Below, in pieces: positions 1,131 to 14,772 of a DNA stretch of 64,000 nucleotides (the stretch's first letter is position 1; each line of letters opens with the position of its first letter). The stretch lies in the sequence record PZ386955.1. One strand, 5' to 3'. The translations under genes were made by a program, and so were the position numbers. The notes under the pieces were generated by a model. That model was given only the letters and a program-made list of their open reading frames with translations, was not told where the DNA came from and made no database searches. This DNA is from a phage.

Positions 1131-1703
1131 TTATTTGCTAATGCTTTGAATCTTATTTACAACACGGTTTATTGCCAGTGAAGCCCTAGGTTCCGCAATA
1201 CCTGTTGCATAGATATAAGGATGACCTTTTGGAGACTCCCTCATACCGAATGAACCTAATTCTAAACCATATTCATCCTCTACGTCAACCCCAATATTAG
1301 TGGGTACTAAATATGTTTTAACTCCATAATAAGTAGAGAAGAAACAGCGCATAGAGTTAGCATACTCTTCAATTGTAGCATCAGGGTAGAACTCAATCAA
1401 CTCCAATTTCAAGAAAATATTAAAATGGGTATCATCTAAATTTTCTTCTGTGCGGTAACATGGTGTTAGTGCCATATACGGATTACCTACTGCAAATTCA
1501 AAACCATCCTTCTCCATTTGCAGGAAAGATTGTTCTGCACTAGCTACATAGTATTTACCGTTAGGATGCCCTAATGGGCGATCCTCTTTATTTTCTGGTA
1601 GTGTGTACGCCAGTATATCAGCATCCACGAGATATGGAACTTCCAACATTTGTGCAAACCGACCATAGTAATCAATAGCTTGAGCTATTACTGCAACATT
1701 CAT
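1131..1703 (-). CDS. hypothetical protein
   Basis: 190 aa ORF, co-oriented and tightly packed with neighbours. Confidence 0.6.
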   Translation of the reverse strand: MNVAVIAQAIDYYGRFAQMLEVPYLVDADILAYTLPENKEDRPLGHPNGKYYVASAEQSFLQMEKDGFEFAVGNPYMALTPCYRTEENLDDTHFNIFLKLELIEFYPDATIEEYANSMRCFFSTYYGVKTYLVPTNIGVDVEDEYGLELGSFGMRESPKGHPYIYATGIAEPRASLAINRVVNKIQSISK

Positions 1704-1951
1704 GATCGACCTCCATTGCGGAATGCACGTTTAGTAATGTTTGACATAGTGATCAAATCTTGAAGCGTCATACCAGGAAAATGCTGTTCAAGAACACCTT
1801 CAACAGCGCCTACAATATCTGATAACTCAATAAGTTGCATCAGCTTGCAATCTTGATCAATAGCATCTTGAAGTTCATAAAGCTCTTCTTGAATCTTAGC
1901 AACAGAACCATATTCCTCTTTGCTAATCTCCTTCAAATGATACCCTGCCAC
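1700..1951 (-). CDS. hypothetical protein
   Basis: 83 aa ORF, GTG start with RBS AAGGGGG; T4 late-promoter-like TATAAATA lies just upstream on minus strand (~1972-1979). Confidence 0.5.
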   Translation of the reverse strand: MAGYHLKEISKEEYGSVAKIQEELYELQDAIDQDCKLMQLIELSDIVGAVEGVLEQHFPGMTLQDLITMSNITKRAFRNGGRS

Positions 1952-1961
1952 TTTAACCCCC

Positions 1962-3698
1962 TTAGTTTACCAGTTTATTTATATCTGGTAAAAGATTTAT
2001 TTCACCTAAAAAATCACCTTCACCTTCCTCTAACCAACTCTCATATGCTTGTGCATGATTATAGTTACCATCAAAAGAATCTGCAACAAATTTTTCTACA
2101 GCTTTTCGAGATGTGCCAGCGCCAAATACACCAAGTTTAATACCATTGATCGGTAAAGTGGTACTTGTGGGTACTTTCTCTGTTGCAACACGGTTGATAT
2201 CTATAATCTCCTGTACGGTTGTGTTCCATTGTAAGCATTTAACACAACGGGTATGCGCTACATACAGTAGGTTTCGCTCTGCCTCTTCCAGTCCTACCCA
2301 TTCACCAGTCTTTTTATCATAGTTGGAAGGAAAATCATTAGCAACAATAACCTGATCCCACTCCAAACCTTTAGACTTGTGTGCTGTAGTAAGTGTGACT
2401 TTTGCTGTAGGAGAATTTCTGTGCGTTCTAAGTGTATGTGCTATGGTGTTCGCCTTACCAGAAACTACGATGTTTAACAAGCGTTTAGCATCTGGATCAG
2501 CCTCTGCACACTCAACAAATTCATCCCAGTCTGCGTAAGGTAATACAGTTTCATGTTTTACTTTCTCAATATCTCCTCTACGAAGAGCATTAACACTATC
2601 TACCATAGAGATAAAATCCCTGGTATCTACGTTAATAATAATTTCTTCCCCATCTGCAATACGATCCATTGCCTCCATAAGCAAGGTTAAATTCTTGCGA
2701 AAGATGATAGTGTAAGGTTTTGTATAGTCTACAACATCTGATTTGTAGCTACCTACTACAGTATCAAAGCCTTTACCAACCAAAGGGTGACGCAAAGGTT
2801 CTTTATCGCTTAAAATCATATTGGCAATGTTTGCCACTTTTGGGCCAAAACGGAAGCAAGCAGTTAATGGAAGCTCTGCCCCATATGTAGATGTTTCCTT
2901 CATCATATTTTGGCTTCCACGGAACTGGTAGATGCTCTGATATTCGTCACCCACCACTACTACTTGTTTTGCAGATTTAGCATTTCGCAGAATAGACAAG
3001 AATGCAGGGTTAACATCCTGGAATTCATCACCAAAAATAATATCATAACCAAGATCAGCACCAGACAATTCAAACAATTTTACATAGGTGTCATGCGTCA
3101 TCAAAGTATCTGTGTTAGGATCGATGCGCTCTCGCCACAATTGTTTTGCATACTTAACTACTTCTGTAATTAGTTTGTGTTCGTTAATACCTTTTCTTTT
3201 AATATCTGCAAGATGTACACTAGGAAAATGTTTACGGCTGATAAAAGGATCATCCGAAAATTCAAACTTACCTACGGTTTGTTTGATCATTAAACCAATC
3301 ATAGCACGAGTTAAAAGTGTTTTCCCTCGTTTATCAATAAGATTATTAATCTTAAATTTCTTTGCTATTTCGCTACCTGTACCTGCAACGTTAACATACT
3401 GTCCTTCTGGTCGTGACAGTTTTGCACGTAAACGATGATCCAGGAATTGATAGCAAATAGAATGCAATGTACGGCATTCTACATTTAGTGGCATCTTACG
3501 TCGTGCTTCTTCTGCCATGCTTTTATTGAAAGCTAAGTAAAGAATGCGATCTTCTGTACTGTTAGCCAGCAAATAAAGTGTTGACGTTTTGCCTGATCCA
3601 GATTTAGCTTGGATAGTTAAAAAGCGATGGTCTGGAAAAGCCTCCTTAATAGCTGTTTGCTCTTCTGTTGGAGTGAAGCTCAACTCTTTCTTAGCCAT
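1962..3698 (-). CDS. UvrD/PcrA-like superfamily I helicase (P-loop ATPase)
   Basis: Walker A AKSGSGKTST, motif II FGDEFQD, TLHS motif; start moved to internal ATG (MAKKEL) with RBS AAGAGAGG. Confidence 0.7.
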   Translation of the reverse strand: MAKKELSFTPTEEQTAIKEAFPDHRFLTIQAKSGSGKTSTLYLLANSTEDRILYLAFNKSMAEEARRKMPLNVECRTLHSICYQFLDHRLRAKLSRPEGQYVNVAGTGSEIAKKFKINNLIDKRGKTLLTRAMIGLMIKQTVGKFEFSDDPFISRKHFPSVHLADIKRKGINEHKLITEVVKYAKQLWRERIDPNTDTLMTHDTYVKLFELSGADLGYDIIFGDEFQDVNPAFLSILRNAKSAKQVVVVGDEYQSIYQFRGSQNMMKETSTYGAELPLTACFRFGPKVANIANMILSDKEPLRHPLVGKGFDTVVGSYKSDVVDYTKPYTIIFRKNLTLLMEAMDRIADGEEIIINVDTRDFISMVDSVNALRRGDIEKVKHETVLPYADWDEFVECAEADPDAKRLLNIVVSGKANTIAHTLRTHRNSPTAKVTLTTAHKSKGLEWDQVIVANDFPSNYDKKTGEWVGLEEAERNLLYVAHTRCVKCLQWNTTVQEIIDINRVATEKVPTSTTLPINGIKLGVFGAGTSRKAVEKFVADSFDGNYNHAQAYESWLEEGEGDFLGEINLLPDINKLVN

Positions 3699-3699
3699 T

Positions 3700-4176
3700 T
3701 CAACCTCTCTTAATTTGTTTAACAAGCATAGGAACAAAATCTCGTTTTAAAATTTGTTCAATAATATGATCAGGTAGCTGTTGGAAATTATAATTAAAAG
3801 CTACTGTCTCACCTTTAGGTGTTTCTACCCGCACATATAACATGTTACGAAGTTTATCCACTTGTGCTGTATATTCTAAACCATGTAATTGATGCATTGC
3901 AAACATCAAATCATCAGTTTCAGTTTGGAATCTATCATTTGCTTGCATTAAAGACAAGGTAAAAGGTAGATTTTCCCTAAGAGCCACCTTCTTAGGAACT
4001 AGTGAAGGAAAATACTCACCAATAACTTCCTGTGTAAGCTGGATACACTCTTTTTCAAGTTGGTTTTGTTCCTTAAGTTCACAAACACTTTTTTGTAAAG
4101 TGTTAACCTCTTTTTGCAAAGCTGCTAGTTGAGCACTTAACTTTCTTTTTTGATTACGACCAAAACGTTTAGACAT
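3700..4176 (-). CDS. hypothetical protein
   Basis: 158 aa ORF, coiled-coil-like N-terminus. Confidence 0.55.
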   Translation of the reverse strand: MSKRFGRNQKRKLSAQLAALQKEVNTLQKSVCELKEQNQLEKECIQLTQEVIGEYFPSLVPKKVALRENLPFTLSLMQANDRFQTETDDLMFAMHQLHGLEYTAQVDKLRNMLYVRVETPKGETVAFNYNFQQLPDHIIEQILKRDFVPMLVKQIKRG

Positions 4177-4184
4177 ATTTCCCC

Positions 4185-4700
4185 CTAGTAAAACCCTTTA
4201 ACAATCTGTATTAACTCGGCACAACGGTTGACCAACTTTTCCTCATACAATACACGTTGTGGCATATGTTGTATAATATACTCCATTTGCTCATGCCATG
4301 TCCACTTTTCTTTTTTGTCCGGGATAACATCACTAGCACGAGAATTATCTTTTAATGTTTGTATAATCCAATTGCTTGGAAAGTGCTCTCCACCTTTCTT
4401 AAATGGTTTATAGTGGCCTAGAGTGAATTGAGAATCCCCTGTTAGAGCACCCAATTTATTTAGATGGATAATCAAACTACGAAACACATAGTATTCATAG
4501 ATGTTATCCACCGTATAGCAAGCATAATATTTCAAGATGCCCTTATCTCGCGGATACTTACCAACATCCAGATTGCACCAGTTGACATTTTCTGGATCAT
4601 AGTGGTGTTCCTTAAGCCATATTTCTCTTTCATCAAAGTCTGGATATATTACCGCTCTGCTTACAGAGTCAACAAGTGGAGATTGAGCATCAAAAAACAT
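4185..4700 (-). CDS. hypothetical protein
   Basis: 171 aa ORF, co-oriented. Confidence 0.55.
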   Translation of the reverse strand: MFFDAQSPLVDSVSRAVIYPDFDEREIWLKEHHYDPENVNWCNLDVGKYPRDKGILKYYACYTVDNIYEYYVFRSLIIHLNKLGALTGDSQFTLGHYKPFKKGGEHFPSNWIIQTLKDNSRASDVIPDKKEKWTWHEQMEYIIQHMPQRVLYEEKLVNRCAELIQIVKGFY

Positions 4701-4721
4701 TATATTTTCCTTATTGGTTTG

Positions 4722-5087
4722 TTAAACGTTTTCTAAATCTTTTAAGGCATTACCCAACGTTAGAACAATAACATCGTTTGCTGCCTCTTCCCCATTGATA
4801 TTGGTGAAATTTGGTGTTACAAAAGTAACCATATAAAACTCGTCCACCTGGAAGATAGCAATAACACCATCCATCTTAACATCTTGACGAAAGGAAAAAC
4901 CAATCATCTTCTCTTGCAAAGGCATATCCCCTTCCTTCATTACCGCTAGGGAGTTTTCAGGAATGTTATATTTATCTGCTCCAATGTAGATGTACGTAAT
5001 GTTATCTTTATCGTGATGATACAGGGTTGCTTTTTCCATATCTAAACCTGACAGATCAAATACGTTAATTTCTTGTGTAGTCTTCAT
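4722..5087 (-). CDS. hypothetical protein
   Basis: Track ORF 4722..5162 trimmed to internal ATG (MKTTQE) preceded by RBS GGGAGGA. Confidence 0.5.
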   Translation of the reverse strand: MKTTQEINVFDLSGLDMEKATLYHHDKDNITYIYIGADKYNIPENSLAVMKEGDMPLQEKMIGFSFRQDVKMDGVIAIFQVDEFYMVTFVTPNFTNINGEEAANDVIVLTLGNALKDLENV

Positions 5088-5451
5088 AAATATCCTCCCA
5101 AATCCAATAATCATCTGTGTAAGTAGGATGCCTTTTATCCCACTCTGTTCTAGCCCAAGCAACCGCTGCTACCAACACATCACCATGACAAGGTTGAGGT
5201 GAGCAGAAGCAAACTAAGTCTTTCCCTTCTAATTCTAACAAATCCTCAAGAGTGATTTTACCACAACGAATTTGTTCCCACAACCACTCTTTATATCTTT
5301 GTATAGTTGACCCTCGTGGTTCATCATCCTTTAACTTAAAAGGATTTGCAAACTTTGAGGCTTTTAACCCCATATGAGGCATAGCTCTGCCAATGTAAAC
5401 TGCACCTTCAGGTATTACTTTACCTAAGTGGTAGAAATTCAATACTCTCAT
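5065..5451 (-). CDS. DUF4326-like protein
   Basis: Motif VYIGR...SKFANPF typical of DUF4326; start placed at internal ATG (MRVLNF), track start is TTG. Confidence 0.55.
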   Translation of the reverse strand: MRVLNFYHLGKVIPEGAVYIGRAMPHMGLKASKFANPFKLKDDEPRGSTIQRYKEWLWEQIRCGKITLEDLLELEGKDLVCFCSPQPCHGDVLVAAVAWARTEWDKRHPTYTDDYWIWEDIYEDYTRN

Positions 5452-5452
5452 A

Positions 5453-5803
5453 TTAACCCAAACACATTTGTGCAATCAAGCCCTGTATAAATTTATTAGC
5501 TTCTTTACTGTCGTAGTCAGTTTCTTCTGGATATCCATCTTCATCGTACACAACTGTACCTTCAATATACCCTGCCTCAATTAAGGCGCGGATCATATCA
5601 AATTGCCAGCATGAGTTACCAAATGGACGTTTACCATTAAAACACTCTTCTTCTCTCCATAACGTAGAGAGTAGTTGTCGGAAATATTCCCGTACAGTGA
5701 CAGTACCAAGATCTGAATCCTCAAACATAACATCCAGGGCATCAGGATTGCTTTTCTCTACATAAGGGATATATTTAACACCATTAATAGTTACATCAAG
5801 CAC
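5453..5803 (-). CDS. hypothetical protein
   Basis: 116 aa ORF, co-oriented. Confidence 0.55.
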   Translation of the reverse strand: MLDVTINGVKYIPYVEKSNPDALDVMFEDSDLGTVTVREYFRQLLSTLWREEECFNGKRPFGNSCWQFDMIRALIEAGYIEGTVVYDEDGYPEETDYDSKEANKFIQGLIAQMCLG

Positions 5804-6166
5804 TTATTTCTCCTTATCATCATATTCTAGGAACATATCTGCACGATATGCTTTACGCTCTTCAAACTTAGCAGGATCTACAACAATAAGCAATACAAGG
5901 TTAACATCTAAATACTTCTTAACAAATAGAAATAAATCTTTTCCACAGTTAAAACCTATACCAGTATAGGCATCCCCATATTGATCTACTGATTTGATCT
6001 TCTTACTAACCGTACACTCTATGCTATTCTTTTCTTCTTGGTATAAGGCTTTCCCACCCCAATATGTAAAGAATTTAGTACCGTCAGCACCAAGTTTAAA
6101 ACCCTCTGTTGCATGTCCCGCAAATGAAAGTAAGCATAACCAAGTGATCATCAGGTACTTTAGCAT
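5804..6166 (-). CDS. putative secreted protein
   Basis: Start at internal ATG gives N-terminal signal-peptide-like MLKYLMITWLCLLSFAGHA. Confidence 0.5.
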   Translation of the reverse strand: MLKYLMITWLCLLSFAGHATEGFKLGADGTKFFTYWGGKALYQEEKNSIECTVSKKIKSVDQYGDAYTGIGFNCGKDLFLFVKKYLDVNLVLLIVVDPAKFEERKAYRADMFLEYDDKEK

Positions 6167-6167
6167 T

Positions 6168-6650
6168 TTAACCACCCAATTGCAAATGTTTAGAAAGAAC
6201 AATATCCCACTGATCACCACAACCGTTATCTATGCGGAACATAATGTACGTATCATCTTCTTCTACGACATATAATACTTCATAGGAATTACAACAGCCT
6301 TCCCAATTTTTAACAGCCTCTGGTGTATCATGTGTAAAAATTTCATTACCATCATATGACCAAAACAAAGGGGTAAGGTTTTCGAAGGTCAGTGAAGTAG
6401 GGTTTACTTCATCTTTAACTGCTTCCTCATATTCTTTATGCGTTTGTACTGCTTTAGTTAGTGTACTCATGTCTATCTCCTTTTCTCCTTCTTGACTATG
6501 GAGGATAGCAAACTCTCTAAACTCCACTTCACGCCACGTTTTTAGGTAGTGCTTTATAATTTTATCAACATCTGCCTGTTCAACATTACTTTTCAAGCAA
6601 TAGTAATCATGGTCTTCGCCCATTCTACCCCATATGCTATACATTGTCAT
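6168..6650 (-). CDS. hypothetical protein
   Basis: 160 aa ORF, co-oriented. Confidence 0.55.
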   Translation of the reverse strand: MTMYSIWGRMGEDHDYYCLKSNVEQADVDKIIKHYLKTWREVEFREFAILHSQEGEKEIDMSTLTKAVQTHKEYEEAVKDEVNPTSLTFENLTPLFWSYDGNEIFTHDTPEAVKNWEGCCNSYEVLYVVEEDDTYIMFRIDNGCGDQWDIVLSKHLQLGG

Positions 6651-10235: not shown

Positions 10236-10333
10236 ACATATCTGGTAAAATCACTTATATGTTCTTAGTATACTTGTGTAAAGAAGTTATCTAACAGGTG
10301 TTGAGTGGACTATTAAATTAGGAGGGCTTTAAT

Positions 10334-10672
10334 ATGTTTAGTAAAGAAATGAGAGAAGTAATTGCCACTTTGGTAGTTGATCATGGTGTTGAAGTTGAGC
10401 GTCACGTTTGGAACGATGAACCTCCTTTCTTCGATTTGGCATCACGAGCTAAAAGTCATATGCACCTGCTGGAAGACGGTAATGAGTTTGTTCTCCGTAT
10501 GCGTTATGATCGAGAGTTTCGAATTCCGCTTGACACTGAACCAGATGGTGTAGTAATGTGGTTGGCAGAACATTTCGCATACGATGCACTACATGGAAGA
10601 AGTTTTGGTAATGAGCGTTGGGATGCCATTTGTCGTAAGCATAATATTGAACCAGAGTACGGGAGTATGTAA
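10334..10672 (+). CDS. hypothetical protein
   Basis: 112 aa, RBS AGGAGGG. Confidence 0.55.
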   Translation: MFSKEMREVIATLVVDHGVEVERHVWNDEPPFFDLASRAKSHMHLLEDGNEFVLRMRYDREFRIPLDTEPDGVVMWLAEHFAYDALHGRSFGNERWDAICRKHNIEPEYGSM

Positions 10673-10923
10673 TGTTAAGTATCAAACCTAAAATGATAAC
10701 AGAAGACGAAGCAGACTTTATTTTCAAATGTGGACGTGTATGGAGAGAATTCACAAAAGGAAATGAAGTGGTGGTTGTTGTTGAACACAAGATATCTATC
10801 CAGGATCTGTTTGGACAATATATTGATGTTATTAAATTAGGTATTGACAAGGGTTTAGTTGAGGTGTTAACATTAGATCAAGTTGAAGCAGAGCACCTCG
10901 ATAAAGTGGTGGTTGAATTTTAA
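10672..10923 (+). CDS. hypothetical protein
   Basis: 83 aa, start overlaps upstream stop. Confidence 0.5.
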   Translation: MLSIKPKMITEDEADFIFKCGRVWREFTKGNEVVVVVEHKISIQDLFGQYIDVIKLGIDKGLVEVLTLDQVEAEHLDKVVVEF

Positions 10924-10943
10924 AATACAGACGGGAGAAAGGT

Positions 10944-11117
10944 ATGAGTTTCTTTGTTACAGTATTTATGGCTATCTGGATTGTAGTCTCACTCGTTCTT
11001 TTCCTGGTGGGTTGTCTGGAAGAGATTAAGAAAGCGGTTATTTGCGGTTTCTTTGGCTTTATTATCTCTCCTGCCTGGATGTGGTTCTTCATTATGATTG
11101 GTTTCCTTAAAAGGTAA
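10944..11117 (+). CDS. small membrane protein (57 aa)
   Basis: Not in track; RBS GGGAGAAAGG; hydrophobic throughout. Confidence 0.4.
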   Translation: MSFFVTVFMAIWIVVSLVLFLVGCLEEIKKAVICGFFGFIISPAWMWFFIMIGFLKR

Positions 11118-11131
11118 GTGAGGAATAAAGA

Positions 11132-11569
11132 ATGAGTAAAACAAACGTAATCGCAGATAAAGCAACGGATGTACTTCTGAACATGGTTAACGTCACTATT
11201 CAAACAATGAGTGATGTTGTAGAGTTTGGAAAACAACAAATTCCAGAAGTAATCCATCAATTATTAGTGTGGAAAGCAGTATCCGCAGGTTTATGGCAAC
11301 TTTTTAGTATTTGCTTTATGTTTATTACTTTTATTGCTGTGCGGAACCTCGTAAAAGCAATTAAAGATAAAGAATGCCTGTGGTCACGAGATCGCTATGG
11401 TGAAGTATCTGCTTTACCTATTGTTGGTCTTGTTGTCTGTGCTTTCTTTTTCTTTTTAGGATTTGTTATTTTCTTTTCGAATTTTGATTGGCTAAAAATC
11501 ATTATTGCACCAAAAGTGTATCTGATTGAATTTGCTGCTGATTTAATTCGTTCATCTCAACAAAAATAA
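11132..11569 (+). CDS. putative membrane protein
   Basis: 145 aa with several hydrophobic helices. Confidence 0.55.
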   Translation: MSKTNVIADKATDVLLNMVNVTIQTMSDVVEFGKQQIPEVIHQLLVWKAVSAGLWQLFSICFMFITFIAVRNLVKAIKDKECLWSRDRYGEVSALPIVGLVVCAFFFFLGFVIFFSNFDWLKIIIAPKVYLIEFAADLIRSSQQK

Positions 11570-11580
11570 AAGGGGTTAAA

Positions 11581-13191
11581 ATGAAATACACGATTTATGG
11601 TGATATTGTAAGTGTAAATAAAGATATGGGCGTGGAATCTAACTATCTTCCACCTGGATTCTATACTGTTAGTCGTGATCCCCTTGGCAATTATTTTTTA
11701 AGCCGTGGTAATCTAACAGGTGTACCGGATGTTCTGTATGGTGAAACAGAAAAACGAGCAAATCACGTTATCCGTACATTCCATCGCCGGAGTGCACAAG
11801 GTAAAAATACAGGCTTGCTTCTGACAGGAACTAAGGGTAGTGGTAAAACTATGTTAGCCAAACTCATTAGTCGTGATCTTGTAGAAGAAGGTATTCCAAC
11901 TATTATGGTTACTCAAGCCTACAGTGATGCTAATTTCATTGAACTTATTAGCAAGATCACCGACAAAGCAGTGATTATTTTTGACGAGTTTGATAAAGTA
12001 TATGAGAAGAAACAAGATCAAGAAGCACTTCTCACTTTGTTAGATGGTACTGGCAGTGGTAATAAACTGTTTATTCTAACTAAAAACAGTGGCTTTATCT
12101 CTGAATTCTTTCTAAATCGTCCTAGTCGTGTGTTTTATAATTTTAATTATGATAAAATCTCACTAGAAACTATGATTGACTATTTAGATAAAAACCTGGA
12201 TAACAAAGCACACTTTGATAATTTCCAAAGACTTTGGGATGTAAGTTTAGAGTTGTCCTTTGATGTGATCCAAGGTATAGTAGAAGAACTTAATTTCTAC
12301 CCTGATTTATCCTTTAAAGAATGCATCTCTATGATGGGCGTTTCTTTGGGTGGTGGTAATAAATGGGATACTACAAGTATTAACAATTTTAAACGTGGTA
12401 GCGGTTGTCCACAATGTAAGAGGGAGAGACAAACAATGTCCGACGATCAACATATTGCAGATTTCTTTTCTACAGGGGAATTTAAGGAAGGCACTATCTT
12501 CACCAATACAGGGAAACGTAACAAGCGTGATGCAGTATGGATGGTTGAGTGTCCTGTTTGCTCCCATGATGAATATGTTCAAGCAGGTGTTTGTGATGGT
12601 AAATTTTACTCTGCAGGACATAACCTTAAACAAGGGTATATTCCGTGTCGTTGTGGGAACTATCAGTATACAGAAGACCAGATCACCTATAGGGTAAAAA
12701 AGGAAGTAGAAGGGAAAGGGTATGTCTGGGTAGATTGGATTACCAAACCCTCTTCTATAGGTAAGTTTAAATATCTTTGTCTTGTGCATGGTGAGCAGAT
12801 AGGGAGTGCTCGTAATTTATTAAGCCTCGGTCAAGGTTGTCCACAGTGTGCTGGTCATAATCAACAGCAATTATATATTAATATTGTTAAAGATAATGAT
12901 ATTATAGTTGCTCTTAAGTTTGGTATATCTAAAGATAGCGATAGACGATTAAACGGTCAAAATAGCCGTAATCTGTTTTTTATGGAGCGTATTTGTTTAT
13001 ATGATTTTAGCACAGTGAAACAATGTAGGGCTGCTGAAAGAGCTATAAAGAAAAAATTAAAAACTGGTATTTTAACGGCAAGAGAGTTGAAAGATGGTTA
13101 TACAGAAACAGTAAGTGTTTCTGATTTGGAAAATCTTCAAAAAATTATTACACAATATGGTGGCAAATTAGTATACAGTAAGGAGATGTAA
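11581..13191 (+). CDS. AAA-type P-loop ATPase fused to Zn-ribbon repeats and a GIY-YIG-like (T5orf172-like) C-terminal domain
   Basis: Walker A GTKGSGKT, Walker B IIFDEFD; three Cys motifs (GCPQC, CPVC..C, GCPQC); C-terminus YINIVKD..KFGIS..RRL..GYTE resembles GIY-YIG family (tentative). Confidence 0.6.
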   Translation: MKYTIYGDIVSVNKDMGVESNYLPPGFYTVSRDPLGNYFLSRGNLTGVPDVLYGETEKRANHVIRTFHRRSAQGKNTGLLLTGTKGSGKTMLAKLISRDLVEEGIPTIMVTQAYSDANFIELISKITDKAVIIFDEFDKVYEKKQDQEALLTLLDGTGSGNKLFILTKNSGFISEFFLNRPSRVFYNFNYDKISLETMIDYLDKNLDNKAHFDNFQRLWDVSLELSFDVIQGIVEELNFYPDLSFKECISMMGVSLGGGNKWDTTSINNFKRGSGCPQCKRERQTMSDDQHIADFFSTGEFKEGTIFTNTGKRNKRDAVWMVECPVCSHDEYVQAGVCDGKFYSAGHNLKQGYIPCRCGNYQYTEDQITYRVKKEVEGKGYVWVDWITKPSSIGKFKYLCLVHGEQIGSARNLLSLGQGCPQCAGHNQQQLYINIVKDNDIIVALKFGISKDSDRRLNGQNSRNLFFMERICLYDFSTVKQCRAAERAIKKKLKTGILTARELKDGYTETVSVSDLENLQKIITQYGGKLVYSKEM

Positions 13192-13743
13192 ATGCGGATT
13201 ACTGATAAGTATGTGTTCTTCTTCTCGGCAAAAGATGAATTTAGCAACTGGTATCTATCATCTTTTATTGAACCTTTAGCTCCCAAGTATAATAATTCTA
13301 TTACAAGTTCTGTTGAATTTACTTGTGTGGAACAATATATGATGTGGAGAAAAGCATGTTTGTTTTATGATTACAACATTGCATCTTCTATTTTAACCGG
13401 AGATCTAAGATATACAGGAGAAAAAGAACAGGCATATTATAAGCGACTAGGCAGATTAGTTAAAGATTATGATGAAGATACCTGGGCTTCTTTACGGGAG
13501 AAGATTGTCAAGCGTGGTTTGTATCTTAAATACACACAAAATGAAGATCTCAAAAATAAACTTATAGCTTACGCAGATAAGGAGTTTGTAGAGGCAAGTC
13601 CTTATGATTCTATTTATGGTATCAAAATGGGGATGTGGGATCGGGACGTGGAAAATAAGGATTGTTGGAAAGGACAAAATCTTTTAGGAAAATGGCATAC
13701 AGACCTTGCTGTTTATCTAAAATCACAATCTGATATTTCCTGA
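13192..13743 (+). CDS. NADAR (YbiA-like) domain protein
   Basis: FFFSAKDEFSNWY..VEFTCVEQYMMWRKA..LGRLV..W..GQNLLGKWHTDLA pattern; start overlaps upstream stop (TAAATG). Confidence 0.65.
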   Translation: MRITDKYVFFFSAKDEFSNWYLSSFIEPLAPKYNNSITSSVEFTCVEQYMMWRKACLFYDYNIASSILTGDLRYTGEKEQAYYKRLGRLVKDYDEDTWASLREKIVKRGLYLKYTQNEDLKNKLIAYADKEFVEASPYDSIYGIKMGMWDRDVENKDCWKGQNLLGKWHTDLAVYLKSQSDIS

Positions 13744-13961
13744 TATTTTGAAAATTTTTACTTTTATAAAAAGGGGTGTGGGTTTCATGTACGGAAATCC
13801 ACCCTCTGAATAATATATCCAGAGTAAATATTATTCTGTACTCTGTTAATAAAGTATTTAATTTGTTTGTTGGACTATGGTATCTGATCTTTAAAAGGCA
13901 TACTATCTCTTAACTACTATTTATAACAGAACAGTAAAATCATTTTTATAAAAAGGACAAA

Positions 13962-14165
13962 ATTATTTAAAGTTTTTACAGATTTTTGGATACAAATTTT
14001 GAAAATGAAAAGTTCAAGTTTGGTCAAAATTATTTAAAGTTTTTGTACGTATTTCTATCCAGATTTTGAAAATGAAAACTTCAATTTTTTAAAAATTCCC
14101 CAGTTTATTTAAAGTTTTTTTGCCTTTTTCCGTAGAAAAATCAAAAATGAAAAGTTCAATTTCGT
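13962..14165. repeat. three imperfect ~70-bp direct repeats (iteron-like)
   Basis: ATTTAAAGTTTTT ... TTGAAAATGAAAAGTTCAA repeated at ~13962, ~14029 and ~14105. Confidence 0.6.
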
Positions 14166-14180
14166 GTTTTTATAGGTGTG

Positions 14181-14199
14181 TGTATGATAATCATTCTCA
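14181..14199. promoter_or_regulatory. Fur-box-like motif, copy 1
   Basis: TGATAATCATTCTC resembles Fur consensus GATAATGATAATCATTATC; followed by GAGAATGAGAAT and a TGAGAAtttTTCTCA palindrome. Confidence 0.35.
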
Positions 14200-14505
14200 G
14201 TAAGAGAATGAGAATCGTTAGCAAATGAGAATTTTTCTCATTTAGAGAATAACGCGCAGGGGTGGTGTTTGTCTCGCGCTCCCGTGTCCCCTCGCCATAC
14301 AATAAGAATAGCATAACCAACAACAAAAGCAAGCGATTATTTCTATCTTTACATTTCTTTACAAATTTATTTTAGACGAGCTACCGGCGATCAACCTTCC
14401 AACCAGTAGTGCCCTGGTATGTTAGCCCCGCCTTTACGCCGTGGGGGTGGCGCTTCCTCTTCTGTATGTAAAACAGTATAAGCCCGATCCCTGGGCTTGT
14501 CAAGA

Positions 14506-14772
14506 TTATTTTTTGTTTTCTTGCCAGGATAGGACACCTAACCAAAAATACATGTCGCCCCGCGCCCCTGGCGGGATCTTGCTTTCCCCGCCGCCACTGC
14601 AAGCCCATAGATAACCATTTGCGAACGTATCAAAATGATCTATCTCTTCCACCTTATGATCGCCCAGGTTGAGAACGGTTTCAACCTTTAAGCCCGTTGC
14701 GCTTGCTACCTGGTGCACCGTGCCGCCTTGCCAGCCCAATGAGTGCATAAGGTGTAAAGTAGTATTTGTCAT
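14506..14772 (-). CDS. hypothetical protein in GC-rich island
   Basis: 88 aa minus-strand ORF inside plus-strand region, with its own minus-strand promoter, hairpin GCGCCAACCAGGGCGC and RBS AAAGAAAGGG. Confidence 0.4.
   Translation of the reverse strand: MTNTTLHLMHSLGWQGGTVHQVASATGLKVETVLNLGDHKVEEIDHFDTFANGYLWACSGGGESKIPPGARGDMYFWLGVLSWQENKK

Follow-up and report, generated by a model that had tools for sequence, protein, structure and literature searches.

An in-frame 764-bp deletion between direct repeats joins an AAA ATPase gene to a CapR/T5orf172 endonuclease gene upstream of a NADAR gene in a phi92-like phage

The counter-defence role of phage NADAR proteins is already published. NADAR^Bas60 (Bas60/61/62) neutralises DarT1 and gave several logs of rescue for three phages sensitive to DarTG1; this anti-DarT1 activity was shown by ectopic expression and not by deleting the gene in its own phage, and in the published phylogeny the protein groups with the non-YbiA-like NADARs (Johannesman, Carlson & LeRoux, PMC11257639). 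All the NADAR subtypes tested in vitro, E. coli YbiA included, hydrolyse guanosine-ADPr (PMC11125620). The active site has been assigned to E88/K95 in the E. coli C7 NADAR and a second acidic site to E125/D130 in the P. nicotianae NADAR (PMC11543638). In-frame deletions have also been described in T5orf172/CapR homing-endonuclease genes, for example in the gp174* allele of ICP1 (Barth et al., PMC10448857).

Here we analysed a 64,000-nt stretch of phage DNA (record PZ386955.1; hereafter the window), whose source is a phi92/PHB05-like E. coli myovirus (Justusliebigvirus). It carries a 536-aa ORF in which an ATPase and a nuclease are fused, followed by a NADAR gene.

Organization of the locus and of its relatives

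The two ORFs that a sequence-only reading had placed at 11581-13191 (536 aa) and 13192-13743 (183 aa) were recovered at the same coordinates (Table 1). The overlap it had described between the stop of the first and the start of the second was not seen, as the TAA at 13189-13191 directly abuts the ATG at 13192. Each of the two small membrane proteins that it had noticed upstream contains a pair of strongly hydrophobic segments (in the 145-aa protein at about residues 49-77 and 89-126) and matches a conserved phage family. The gene for the 57-aa protein is a conserved neighbour lying outside the chimera.

Table 1. Features of the ATPase-endonuclease-NADAR locus in the window
Feature	Position	Strand	Evidence
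57-aa small membrane protein, phrog_22950	10944..11117	+	phrog_22950, E = 6.9e-40; kept in all close relatives
145-aa membrane protein, phrog_3054	11132..11569	+	phrog_3054, E = 1.4e-44; upstream neighbour, conserved
536-aa chimeric ORF	11581..13191	+	ORF call
ATPase-derived part (parent residues 1-263)	11581..12370	+	PHB05 alignment; phrog_2376; AF2 model of parent
Walker A GTKGSGKT (residues 83-90)	11827..11850	+	sequence
Walker B VIIFDE (residues 131-136)	11971..11988	+	sequence
CapR zinc-finger repeat 2 remnant (fusion residues 258-281 = parent 112-135)	12352..12423	+	AF2 model of parent; family alignment
Deletion junction, one copy of GTGGTAATAAATGGGATA encoding (G)GNKWD	12353..12370	+	BLAST split against relatives
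Zn-rich beta domain (fusion 285-361; CPVC, CRC) and CapR-like repeat 3 (365-421; C..H...CPQC)	12433..12843	+	Pfam CapR; invariant Cys/His columns; parent model
T5orf172/GIY-YIG-type nuclease domain, intact (fusion residues 430-533)	12868..13179	+	family-invariant Y432, G448, R456, E509 present
Shine-Dalgarno AAGGAG for the NADAR gene, within the 3' end of the chimeric ORF	13180..13185	+	sequence read
NADAR gene, 183 aa	13192..13743	+	ORF call; Pfam NADAR; orthologue of phi92 gp223 / Bas61 bas61_0107

In every relative examined, the region of the 536-aa ORF is occupied by two genes, an AAA ATPase gene (375 aa, phrog_2376) and a CapR/T5orf172 gene (325-486 aa), separated by a 74-bp spacer with an intrinsic terminator. 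PHB05, which is 98.9% identical, has the order ATPase gene (375 aa), 74-bp spacer, endonuclease gene (390 aa) and NADAR gene, and the arrangement in Bas61, arall and Paula is identical to it. The spacers of PHB05, Bas61 and arall all contain the terminator, AAAACCCGC-TTCG-GCGGGTTTT, which the window lacks. In the intact arrangement this predicted terminator stands between the ATPase gene and the endonuclease-NADAR pair; in the window, the NADAR gene would now be transcribed without an intervening terminator and, with this upstream element deleted, its expression may be altered.

The ATPase-NADAR linkage is not conserved beyond the close E. coli relatives. Klebsiella phage phi1_175008 has the ATPase gene with neither an endonuclease nor a NADAR gene beside it, and NADAR genes lacking an adjacent ATPase or endonuclease were seen in other relatives. 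Together with the terminator between the genes in the intact loci, this speaks against the earlier suggestion that the ATPase-nuclease acts as a partner of NADAR.

A 764-bp deletion between two copies of an 18-nt sequence

BLAST alignment against the relatives broke the window into two segments that overlap by 18 nt (12353-12370), with a 764-bp gap between them in the relatives. In PHB05 the ATPase gene and the endonuclease gene each contain one copy of the 18-nt sequence GTGGTAATAAATGGGATA; the copies are 764 bp apart, and exactly these 764 bp are missing from the window. Up to the junction, window positions 10300-12370 are 99.3% identical to positions 1501-3571 of the PHB05 locus. As both copies of the 18-mer encode G-N-K-W-D in frame, the product is necessarily an in-frame chimera, in which ATPase residues 1-263 are joined to endonuclease residues 112-390. 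Residues 1-302 of the protein match one family (phrog_2376) and residues 258-535 a separate one (phrog_681). It differs from PHB05 by no amino acid in the ATPase part and by two in the endonuclease part, which indicates that the deletion is recent.

The sequence GTGGTAATAAATGGGATA is the longest word common to the two parental genes, and none of 2000 codon shuffles reached 18 nt (maximum 16). We considered whether this identity goes back to a deep relationship of the ATPase linker with the CapR repeat and rejected this, because the orthologous ATPases differ in their residues at this place and because PHB05 alone, of the relatives fetched, carries the 18-mer in both genes (Bas61 and arall: ATPase gene only; Paula: endonuclease gene only). 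We also rejected an ancestral fusion that was interrupted by an insertion in the relatives, since the C-terminal domain of the ATPase and the N-terminus of the endonuclease are each conserved in distant homologues.

An alignment combining the fusion with both parental families mixed the ATPase C-terminal domain with endonuclease columns; therefore, the intact parents were modelled instead of the chimera. Placed on the two models, the breakpoint lies in a linker predicted at low confidence (ATPase) and within CapR repeat 2 (endonuclease). The deletion has removed the C-terminal beta domain of the ATPase, the intrinsic terminator in the spacer, the start codon of the endonuclease gene with its ribosome-binding site, and CapR repeat 1 with the first two-thirds of repeat 2 (1.6 CapR repeats).

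On the ATPase side, the Walker A and B motifs described by the sequence-only reading were confirmed, and Pfam AAA (PF00004) scored 37.8 bits (cutoff 21.2), so that motifs and profile both identify a classical AAA ATPase. According to the AF2 model of the 375-aa parent (pLDDT 89), from which the domain boundaries were taken, the retained part comprises the beta domain at the N-terminus, followed by the alpha/beta core of the AAA module and the helical lid. The C-terminal beta domain of the parent (264-375) is absent from the chimera and encoded nowhere else in the window; the protein is consequently not a full-length member of phrog_2376, matching profile positions 1-304 of 363 (1-357 for PHB05). 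Foldseek matches of the ATPase (Bcs1, Rpt, FtsH-AAA and NSF) covered the AAA module alone, about 250 columns, and its profile matched p97/Cdc48 at about 1e-11. Some relatives are labelled 'FtsH-like protease' or 'Zn metalloprotease'; these labels are unsupported, as the Pfam scan detected no protease domain (Peptidase M41 or other) in the window protein or in the intact parent.

On the endonuclease side, three Cys-x2-Cys motifs had been proposed, and we located them at residues 276, 324 and 420, with an additional CRC at 356. Pfam CapR scored 67.3 bits (cutoff 24.2). CapR repeat 2 keeps its CPQC knuckle and has lost its helix, two strands and first Cys/His ligands. The Zn-rich beta domain and CapR-like repeat 3, presumably DNA-binding modules of the endonuclease, are retained intact; the AF2 model of the parent has linkers at residues 68-70 and 136-138. 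The proposed C-terminal T5orf172/GIY-YIG-type domain stood as regards its fold (beta-beta-alpha-beta-alpha), with the conserved Tyr, Arg and Glu in place, but its Pfam T5orf172 score of 18.9 bits falls slightly short of the cutoff (20). For intact relatives the score is 20.6-22.1 bits, and 25 of the 29 members of the endonuclease family match T5orf172 at E <0.01. When the endonuclease-family profile was compared with PDB sequences, ribosomal protein bL31 was the sole match, a weak zinc-ribbon similarity (E = 0.28).

With repeats, ribosome-binding site and start codon lost, a remnant is left in the window in place of an intact CapR homing-endonuclease gene. Among related genomes this gene is polymorphic for presence at one site: it follows the ATPase gene in Justusliebigvirus and phAPEC8 and is absent in Klebsiella phage phi1_175008. 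The length of its product across the relatives is set by the number of CapR repeats. Such length variation and patchy presence point to a mobile or unstable, putative homing-endonuclease gene.

The fusion was found in this genome alone. Among 56 matching phage records (50,697 phage records searched), none had a contiguous junction. No protein in 5.8 billion protein clusters covered more than 59% of the 536-aa query, the exact 536-aa sequence was not found in a 15-billion-sequence collection, and the 33-nt junction sequence had no matches in IMG/VR. Across these phage records, protein clusters, exact-sequence look-up and IMG/VR, no AAA + CapR + T5orf172 architecture recurred in independent genomes. 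What had been read as a distinctive ATPase/Zn-ribbon/GIY-YIG combination is thus a singleton in-frame deletion product of a truncated conserved ATPase and a truncated free-standing endonuclease, and does not represent a protein family.

A singleton whose flanks hardly differ from the intact genes of PHB05 and whose breakpoints are direct repeats could also be an assembly or consensus artefact, or an assembled minority variant, the real phage having two intact genes. We consider this unlikely. An 18-nt repeat would be shorter than the usual k-mers or overlaps of assemblers, so that an assembly collapse is not expected; a clean, in-frame junction like this one is what a real repeat-mediated deletion would give; and deletions are documented in homing-endonuclease genes of this kind (PMC10448857).

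The NADAR gene

The clear NADAR gene noted downstream was firmly supported: Pfam NADAR (PF08719) matched the 183-aa protein over residues 13-168 with 125.8 bits (cutoff 35.1; E = 2.5e-36). The protein is identical to that of Bas61 at 181 of 183 positions (99%), with two conservative substitutions relative to Bas61, A99T and S178A, and its exact sequence occurs in at least 10 other contigs. On alignment with the solved NADAR 8BAU, E47...K54 and E134/D139 correspond to catalytic-site residues (provided that the numbering of the PDB chain is offset by 2 residues), and the active-site Glu/Lys pair and the second acidic site are both conserved. The gene is an orphan, flanked by the endonuclease remnant upstream and by non-coding repeats downstream. 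Scanning of upstream neighbours revealed no ART/DarT domain, and the locus does not have the make-up of a DarT-NADAR or DarTG1 operon. Searches for tRNA genes and Rfam families 3' of the NADAR gene were both negative.

Alternatively, the protein could act mainly as a YbiA-like N-glycosidase on intermediates of the riboflavin pathway or on other nucleotide metabolites, and not against DarT. It exceeds the cutoff of TIGR02464 (NCBIfam, riboflavin biosynthesis intermediates N-glycosidase; 110.5 bits, cutoff 73.7), its E134, which aligns to E125 of 8BAU, places a Glu at the position that defines the YbiA subfamily, and several relatives are annotated as YbiA-like N-glycosidase or GTP cyclohydrolase II. 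However, the 99%-identical NADAR^Bas60 was the protein that neutralised DarT1 and rescued the DarTG1-sensitive phages (PMC11257639), and guanosine-ADPr was hydrolysed by every subtype tested (PMC11125620), which makes a mainly metabolic role quite improbable. The earlier idea of a NADAR counter-defence function is in agreement with these findings. Judged by its sequence, the window NADAR belongs to the NADAR^Bas60 type and is predicted to be an orphan guanine-ADP-ribosyl-DNA glycohydrolase that would counter DarT1.

Origin of the chimera and comparison with known systems

We propose that the locus was an ordinary ATPase, CapR-T5orf172 endonuclease and NADAR stretch, that the 764-bp repeat-mediated deletion made the chimera, and that NADAR is an independent anti-DarT1 factor; this account is very probably correct. 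The starting point would have been a three-gene stretch in which an AAA ATPase gene and a free-standing CapR/T5orf172 homing-endonuclease gene preceded NADAR. The loss of 764 bp between the copies of GTGGTAATAAATGGGATA, in the linker after the ATPase lid and in the second CapR repeat of the endonuclease, may have occurred by replication slippage or by microhomology-mediated or single-strand-annealing repair. The resulting chimera would be a degraded allele of a selfish endonuclease combined with a crippled or dispensable ATPase, rather than a new functional enzyme, although either half may retain some activity. NADAR, independently of the other two genes, would strip ADP-ribose from guanine in DarT1-modified DNA and so allow replication in DarTG1 hosts.

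It is also conceivable, though very unlikely, that the deletion allele was selected, either because the loss of the terminator and of the endonuclease gene's start brought NADAR under stronger or earlier transcription from the ATPase promoter or because tethering to the AAA module created a new ATP-dependent nuclease. In the first case, protection against DarT1 would be better; in the second, a GIY-YIG nuclease with a reduced DNA-binding array would sit on an oligomeric AAA module. Both the AAA module and the nuclease domain are complete in the chimera and lie in a single uninterrupted frame, and in the window this frame runs directly up to the NADAR gene, no terminator intervening, but the idea that the chimera is a genuine, selected ATP-driven GIY-YIG nuclease with Zn ribbons, working with NADAR in a counter-defence or DNA-repair operon, is hardly credible and already largely refuted, as the architecture occurs nowhere else in the databases searched, the two genes are separate in all relatives and divided by a terminator, a CapR zinc finger is broken at the junction and a conserved ATPase domain lost, related phages show NADAR without the ATPase and the ATPase without NADAR, and PADLOC matched the chimera to no defence model.

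We regard the locus as a natural example of homing-endonuclease decay in which a repeat-mediated deletion extends into a neighbouring core gene. It also cautions that a striking multi-domain 'fusion' seen in a single genome needs comparison with close relatives before being called a new system. If the phage is viable, the allele suggests that, under the conditions of isolation, it can do without the C-terminal domain of the conserved phi92 gp221-type AAA ATPase or without the entire protein. With its NADAR gene, the window joins the known carriers of an anti-DarTG1 factor that has been characterised before.

Among known systems, the AAA ATPase of Stephanstirmvirinae (phi92 gp221 / PHB05 gp214; phrog_2376) is identical between PHB05 and the chimera over residues 1-263. 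The parent continues into a family-conserved C-terminal beta domain (264-375), whereas the chimera has endonuclease sequence there. The endonuclease parent, phi92 gp222 / PHB05 gp215 (phrog_681), is built as 'beads on a string', with CapR zinc-finger repeats followed by a C-terminal GIY-YIG-type nuclease, as in the chimera. The T5orf172 homing-endonuclease genes of ICP1, gp174* in particular, share with the window a repeat-mediated in-frame deletion as the mode of decay (PMC10448857). In gp174* both repeats lie within the endonuclease gene, while in the window the second recombining repeat lies in the neighbouring ATPase gene; as a result, the endonuclease remnant is fused to a gene of the host phage, and the ATPase gene is truncated too. 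NADAR^Bas60, in the same 90% cluster as phi92 gp223, has a NADAR domain with the conserved E...K pair, like the window protein. The Bas61 gene lies directly downstream of the endonuclease gene, a position matching that in the window, but keeps the upstream terminator that the window has lost. T4 AdfN (gp30.3), with which counteraction of DarTG1 by a phage NADAR was first shown, belongs to the same superfamily and shares the proposed chemistry, the removal of ADP-ribose from guanine in DNA; it falls into a different NADAR clade, and the T4-type phage NADARs have a His where the window NADAR has a Glu (PMC11543638).

The large ORF as a deletion chimera

We observed that the sequence-only reading had placed the two ORFs exactly (see table), and that its description of the 536-aa protein was accurate: Walker A (GTKGSGKT, residue 83) and Walker B (VIIFDE, residue 131) motifs and three CxxC motifs are present, with one CxC besides. 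In Pfam searches this protein scored 37.8 bits for AAA, 67.3 bits for CapR zinc-finger repeats and a borderline 18.9 bits (cutoff 20) for T5orf172. Against PHROG, residues 1–302 matched phrog_2376, 'ATPase' (profile positions 1–304 of 363), and residues 258–535 matched phrog_681, 'endonuclease' (276–547 of 576), which are unrelated families. The small membrane proteins proposed upstream were also supported, both ORFs being hydrophobic and members of conserved phage families. The stop codon (13189–13191), thought to overlap the NADAR start codon, touches it without overlap, and the NADAR gene has its own ribosome-binding site, AAGGAG.

The window comes from an E. coli myovirus of the phi92/PHB05 type (Justusliebigvirus, Stephanstirmvirinae). 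Records of 'Campylobacter phages' (host Campylobacter jejuni; 5–19 by query) also closely match this lineage, perhaps because they are mislabelled or contaminated, or because the lineage is unexpectedly widespread. In relatives (the 40 closest records listed) the 4-kb region round the locus spans 4.4–5.0 kb. PHB05, 98.9% identical, has a 375-aa ATPase gene, a 74-bp spacer, a 390-aa endonuclease gene and then NADAR, and the same organisation is seen in Bas61, arall and Paula. Pairwise BLAST aligned 10300–12370 with PHB05 locus positions 1501–3571, and 12353–14220 with 4318–6184; the alignments overlap by 18 nt, GTGGTAATAAATGGGATA. PHB05 carries one copy of this 18-mer in the ATPase gene and one in the endonuclease gene, 764 bp apart, and the window holds a single copy. 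As both PHB05 copies encode G-N-K-W-D in frame, loss of one copy with the intervening DNA causes no frameshift. Such a deletion, presumably by slippage or annealing-type repair, joins ATPase residues 1–263 to endonuclease residues 112–390. Compared with PHB05, the retained ATPase part has no amino-acid differences and the retained endonuclease part has two, which indicates that the deletion is very recent. Elsewhere in the window, identity to the best database match reaches only ~98%, so the phage is a distinct isolate, not derived from any deposited genome. We concluded that the proposed new ATPase–nuclease fusion partnering NADAR resolves to a recent, unique 764-bp deletion chimera of two genes.

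The ATPase–endonuclease fusion is not a family. A 200-nt junction probe matched 56 phage records, none with both halves contiguous, and the 33-nt junction string had no match in IMG/VR. Among 5.8 billion protein clusters there was no full-length match to the chimera; only partial-coverage proteins were returned, namely ATPases of 374–379 aa (~50% of the chimera) and endonucleases of 325–468 aa (~52–59%). The exact chimera was not found in a 15-billion-sequence collection, in which at least 10 contigs carry the exact NADAR sequence.

The 18-mer is the longest word common to both parental genes, a length attained by none of 2000 codon-shuffled pairs (maximum 16). The most plausible reading is that it arose by chance in one sublineage and there created a deletion hotspot. 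It occurs in both genes of PHB05 (locus positions 3554 and 4318), in the ATPase gene only of Bas61 (3554) and arall (3407), and in the endonuclease gene only of Paula (4167); this polymorphism limits predisposition to the deletion to some sublineages. Descent of the word from homology between the two genes is not favoured, because, of the relatives compared, PHB05 alone carries it in both, and the linker of orthologous ATPases has other residues (GGEAKWD, GNNAKWK and so on).

Parental proteins and the deleted DNA

Features of the locus and of the intact parental proteins (models predicted; ATPase by AlphaFold)
Feature	Position	Strand	Remark
Large ORF	11581–13191	+	536 aa
NADAR ORF	13192–13743	+	183 aa
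88-aa ORF	14506–14772	−	'hypothetical protein' in relatives
Endonuclease gene, PHB05 locus	3984–5156		
Endonuclease gene, Bas61 locus	3984–4961		
Endonuclease gene, arall locus	3837–5030		
Endonuclease gene, another relative's locus (L004)	1992–3452		
ATPase N-terminal beta domain	residues 1–45		model
ATPase AAA core	residues 56–190		model
ATPase helical lid	residues 195–252		model
ATPase linker			model; lower confidence, between lid and C-terminal domain
ATPase C-terminal beta-rich domain	residues 262–363		model
CapR repeat 1	endonuclease residues 1–67		model
CapR repeat 2	endonuclease residues 71–135		model
Zn-rich beta domain	endonuclease residues 139–215		model
CapR-like repeat 3	endonuclease residues 219–275		model
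C-terminal nuclease domain	endonuclease residues 284–387		model

The ATPase is a classical-clade AAA protein. Foldseek returned Bcs1, proteasomal Rpt, the FtsH AAA module, NSF and Cdc48 (E ~1e-8, ~250 columns), and the family profile matched p97/Cdc48/NSF/Rix7/Msp1 at ~1e-11 over the P-loop core only. Pfam found no protease domain in the chimera or the intact parent, so the labels 'FtsH-like protease' and 'Zn metalloprotease' in relatives are over-annotations. Conservation is at least 99% across 55 records, and distant homologues are present in many large myoviruses. In tblastn with the intact ATPase as query, most Justusliebigvirus genomes matched at two places, which points to an AAA ATPase paralogue at another locus; no second copy was found within the window. 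In the ATPase model (pLDDT 89) the junction lies within the linker, so the AAA module is kept whole and the C-terminal domain is gone; all invariant columns of the family are at residue 240 or earlier.

The endonuclease model (pLDDT 84.6) has a string-of-beads layout. The junction at residue 112 falls inside CapR repeat 2, which by this model loses a helix, two strands and the first zinc ligands. Also removed were the endonuclease's own ribosome-binding site and start codon, and a predicted intrinsic terminator (AAAACCCGC-TTCG-GCGGGTTTT, then a T-rich tract), which is independently annotated in Paula and kept in PHB05, Bas61 and arall. Neither lost protein segment is encoded anywhere else within the window.

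Near-identical phages differ in the length of the endonuclease (325–486 aa), CapR repeats having been gained or lost while the nuclease domain stays nearly invariant. RepA_N + T5orf172 proteins (Odn-like, possibly anti-satellite) have been described in phages Inny and Muut (Barth et al., PMC10448857), which figure among the close relatives.

NADAR and its surroundings

The NADAR assignment was borne out by Pfam (125.8 bits; cutoff 35.1). The protein is identical to that of Bas61 at 181 of 183 residues and shares a 90% cluster with phi92 gp223 and a JohannJBalmer protein; aligned to the solved NADAR 8BAU, it matches the conserved Glu...Lys pair and the second acidic site. NADAR homologues were found in 717 phage records. 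They stand in other gene contexts in Klebsiella phages FBKp34 and KPP-1, and in phAPEC8 two small genes separate endonuclease and NADAR; the ATPase–endonuclease–NADAR adjacency is therefore local synteny and no functional module.

Directly downstream lies a ~0.75-kb non-coding stretch, kept in relatives, with no tRNA or Rfam match. It holds three tandem-like AT-rich copies (13942–14162; unit ~70–79 nt, 71–73% identity to the first), which could be a promoter/regulatory array or an origin-like element. A locally GC-richer patch (14381–14772, in a 37% GC genome) contains the 88-aa minus-strand ORF, for which the Paula entry cites phi92 gp224. Terminator-like hairpins flank this patch, as does a near-consensus promoter (TTGACA-17-TATACT, 14503–14475).

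For the NADAR protein, PADLOC also returned the candidate-defence model PDC-M42C (E = 1.8e-34), and NCBIfam gave a weak match to 'DS32_2 NADAR family anti-phage protein' (26 bits against a cutoff of 240), which indicates that NADAR domains serve both defence and counter-defence.

The counter-defence role hypothesized for NADAR is supported, yet already published. Johannesman, Carlson and LeRoux (PMC11257639) expressed ectopically the NADAR common to Bas60, Bas61 and Bas62: three DarTG1-sensitive phages replicated several logs better, and DarT1 was neutralised without phage present; DarTG2 was not countered. Every NADAR subtype tested by Cihlova et al. hydrolyses guanosine-ADPr (PMC11125620). 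Fixation of the deletion in the stock, residual activity of the chimera or altered NADAR expression would none of them imply a new kind of system.
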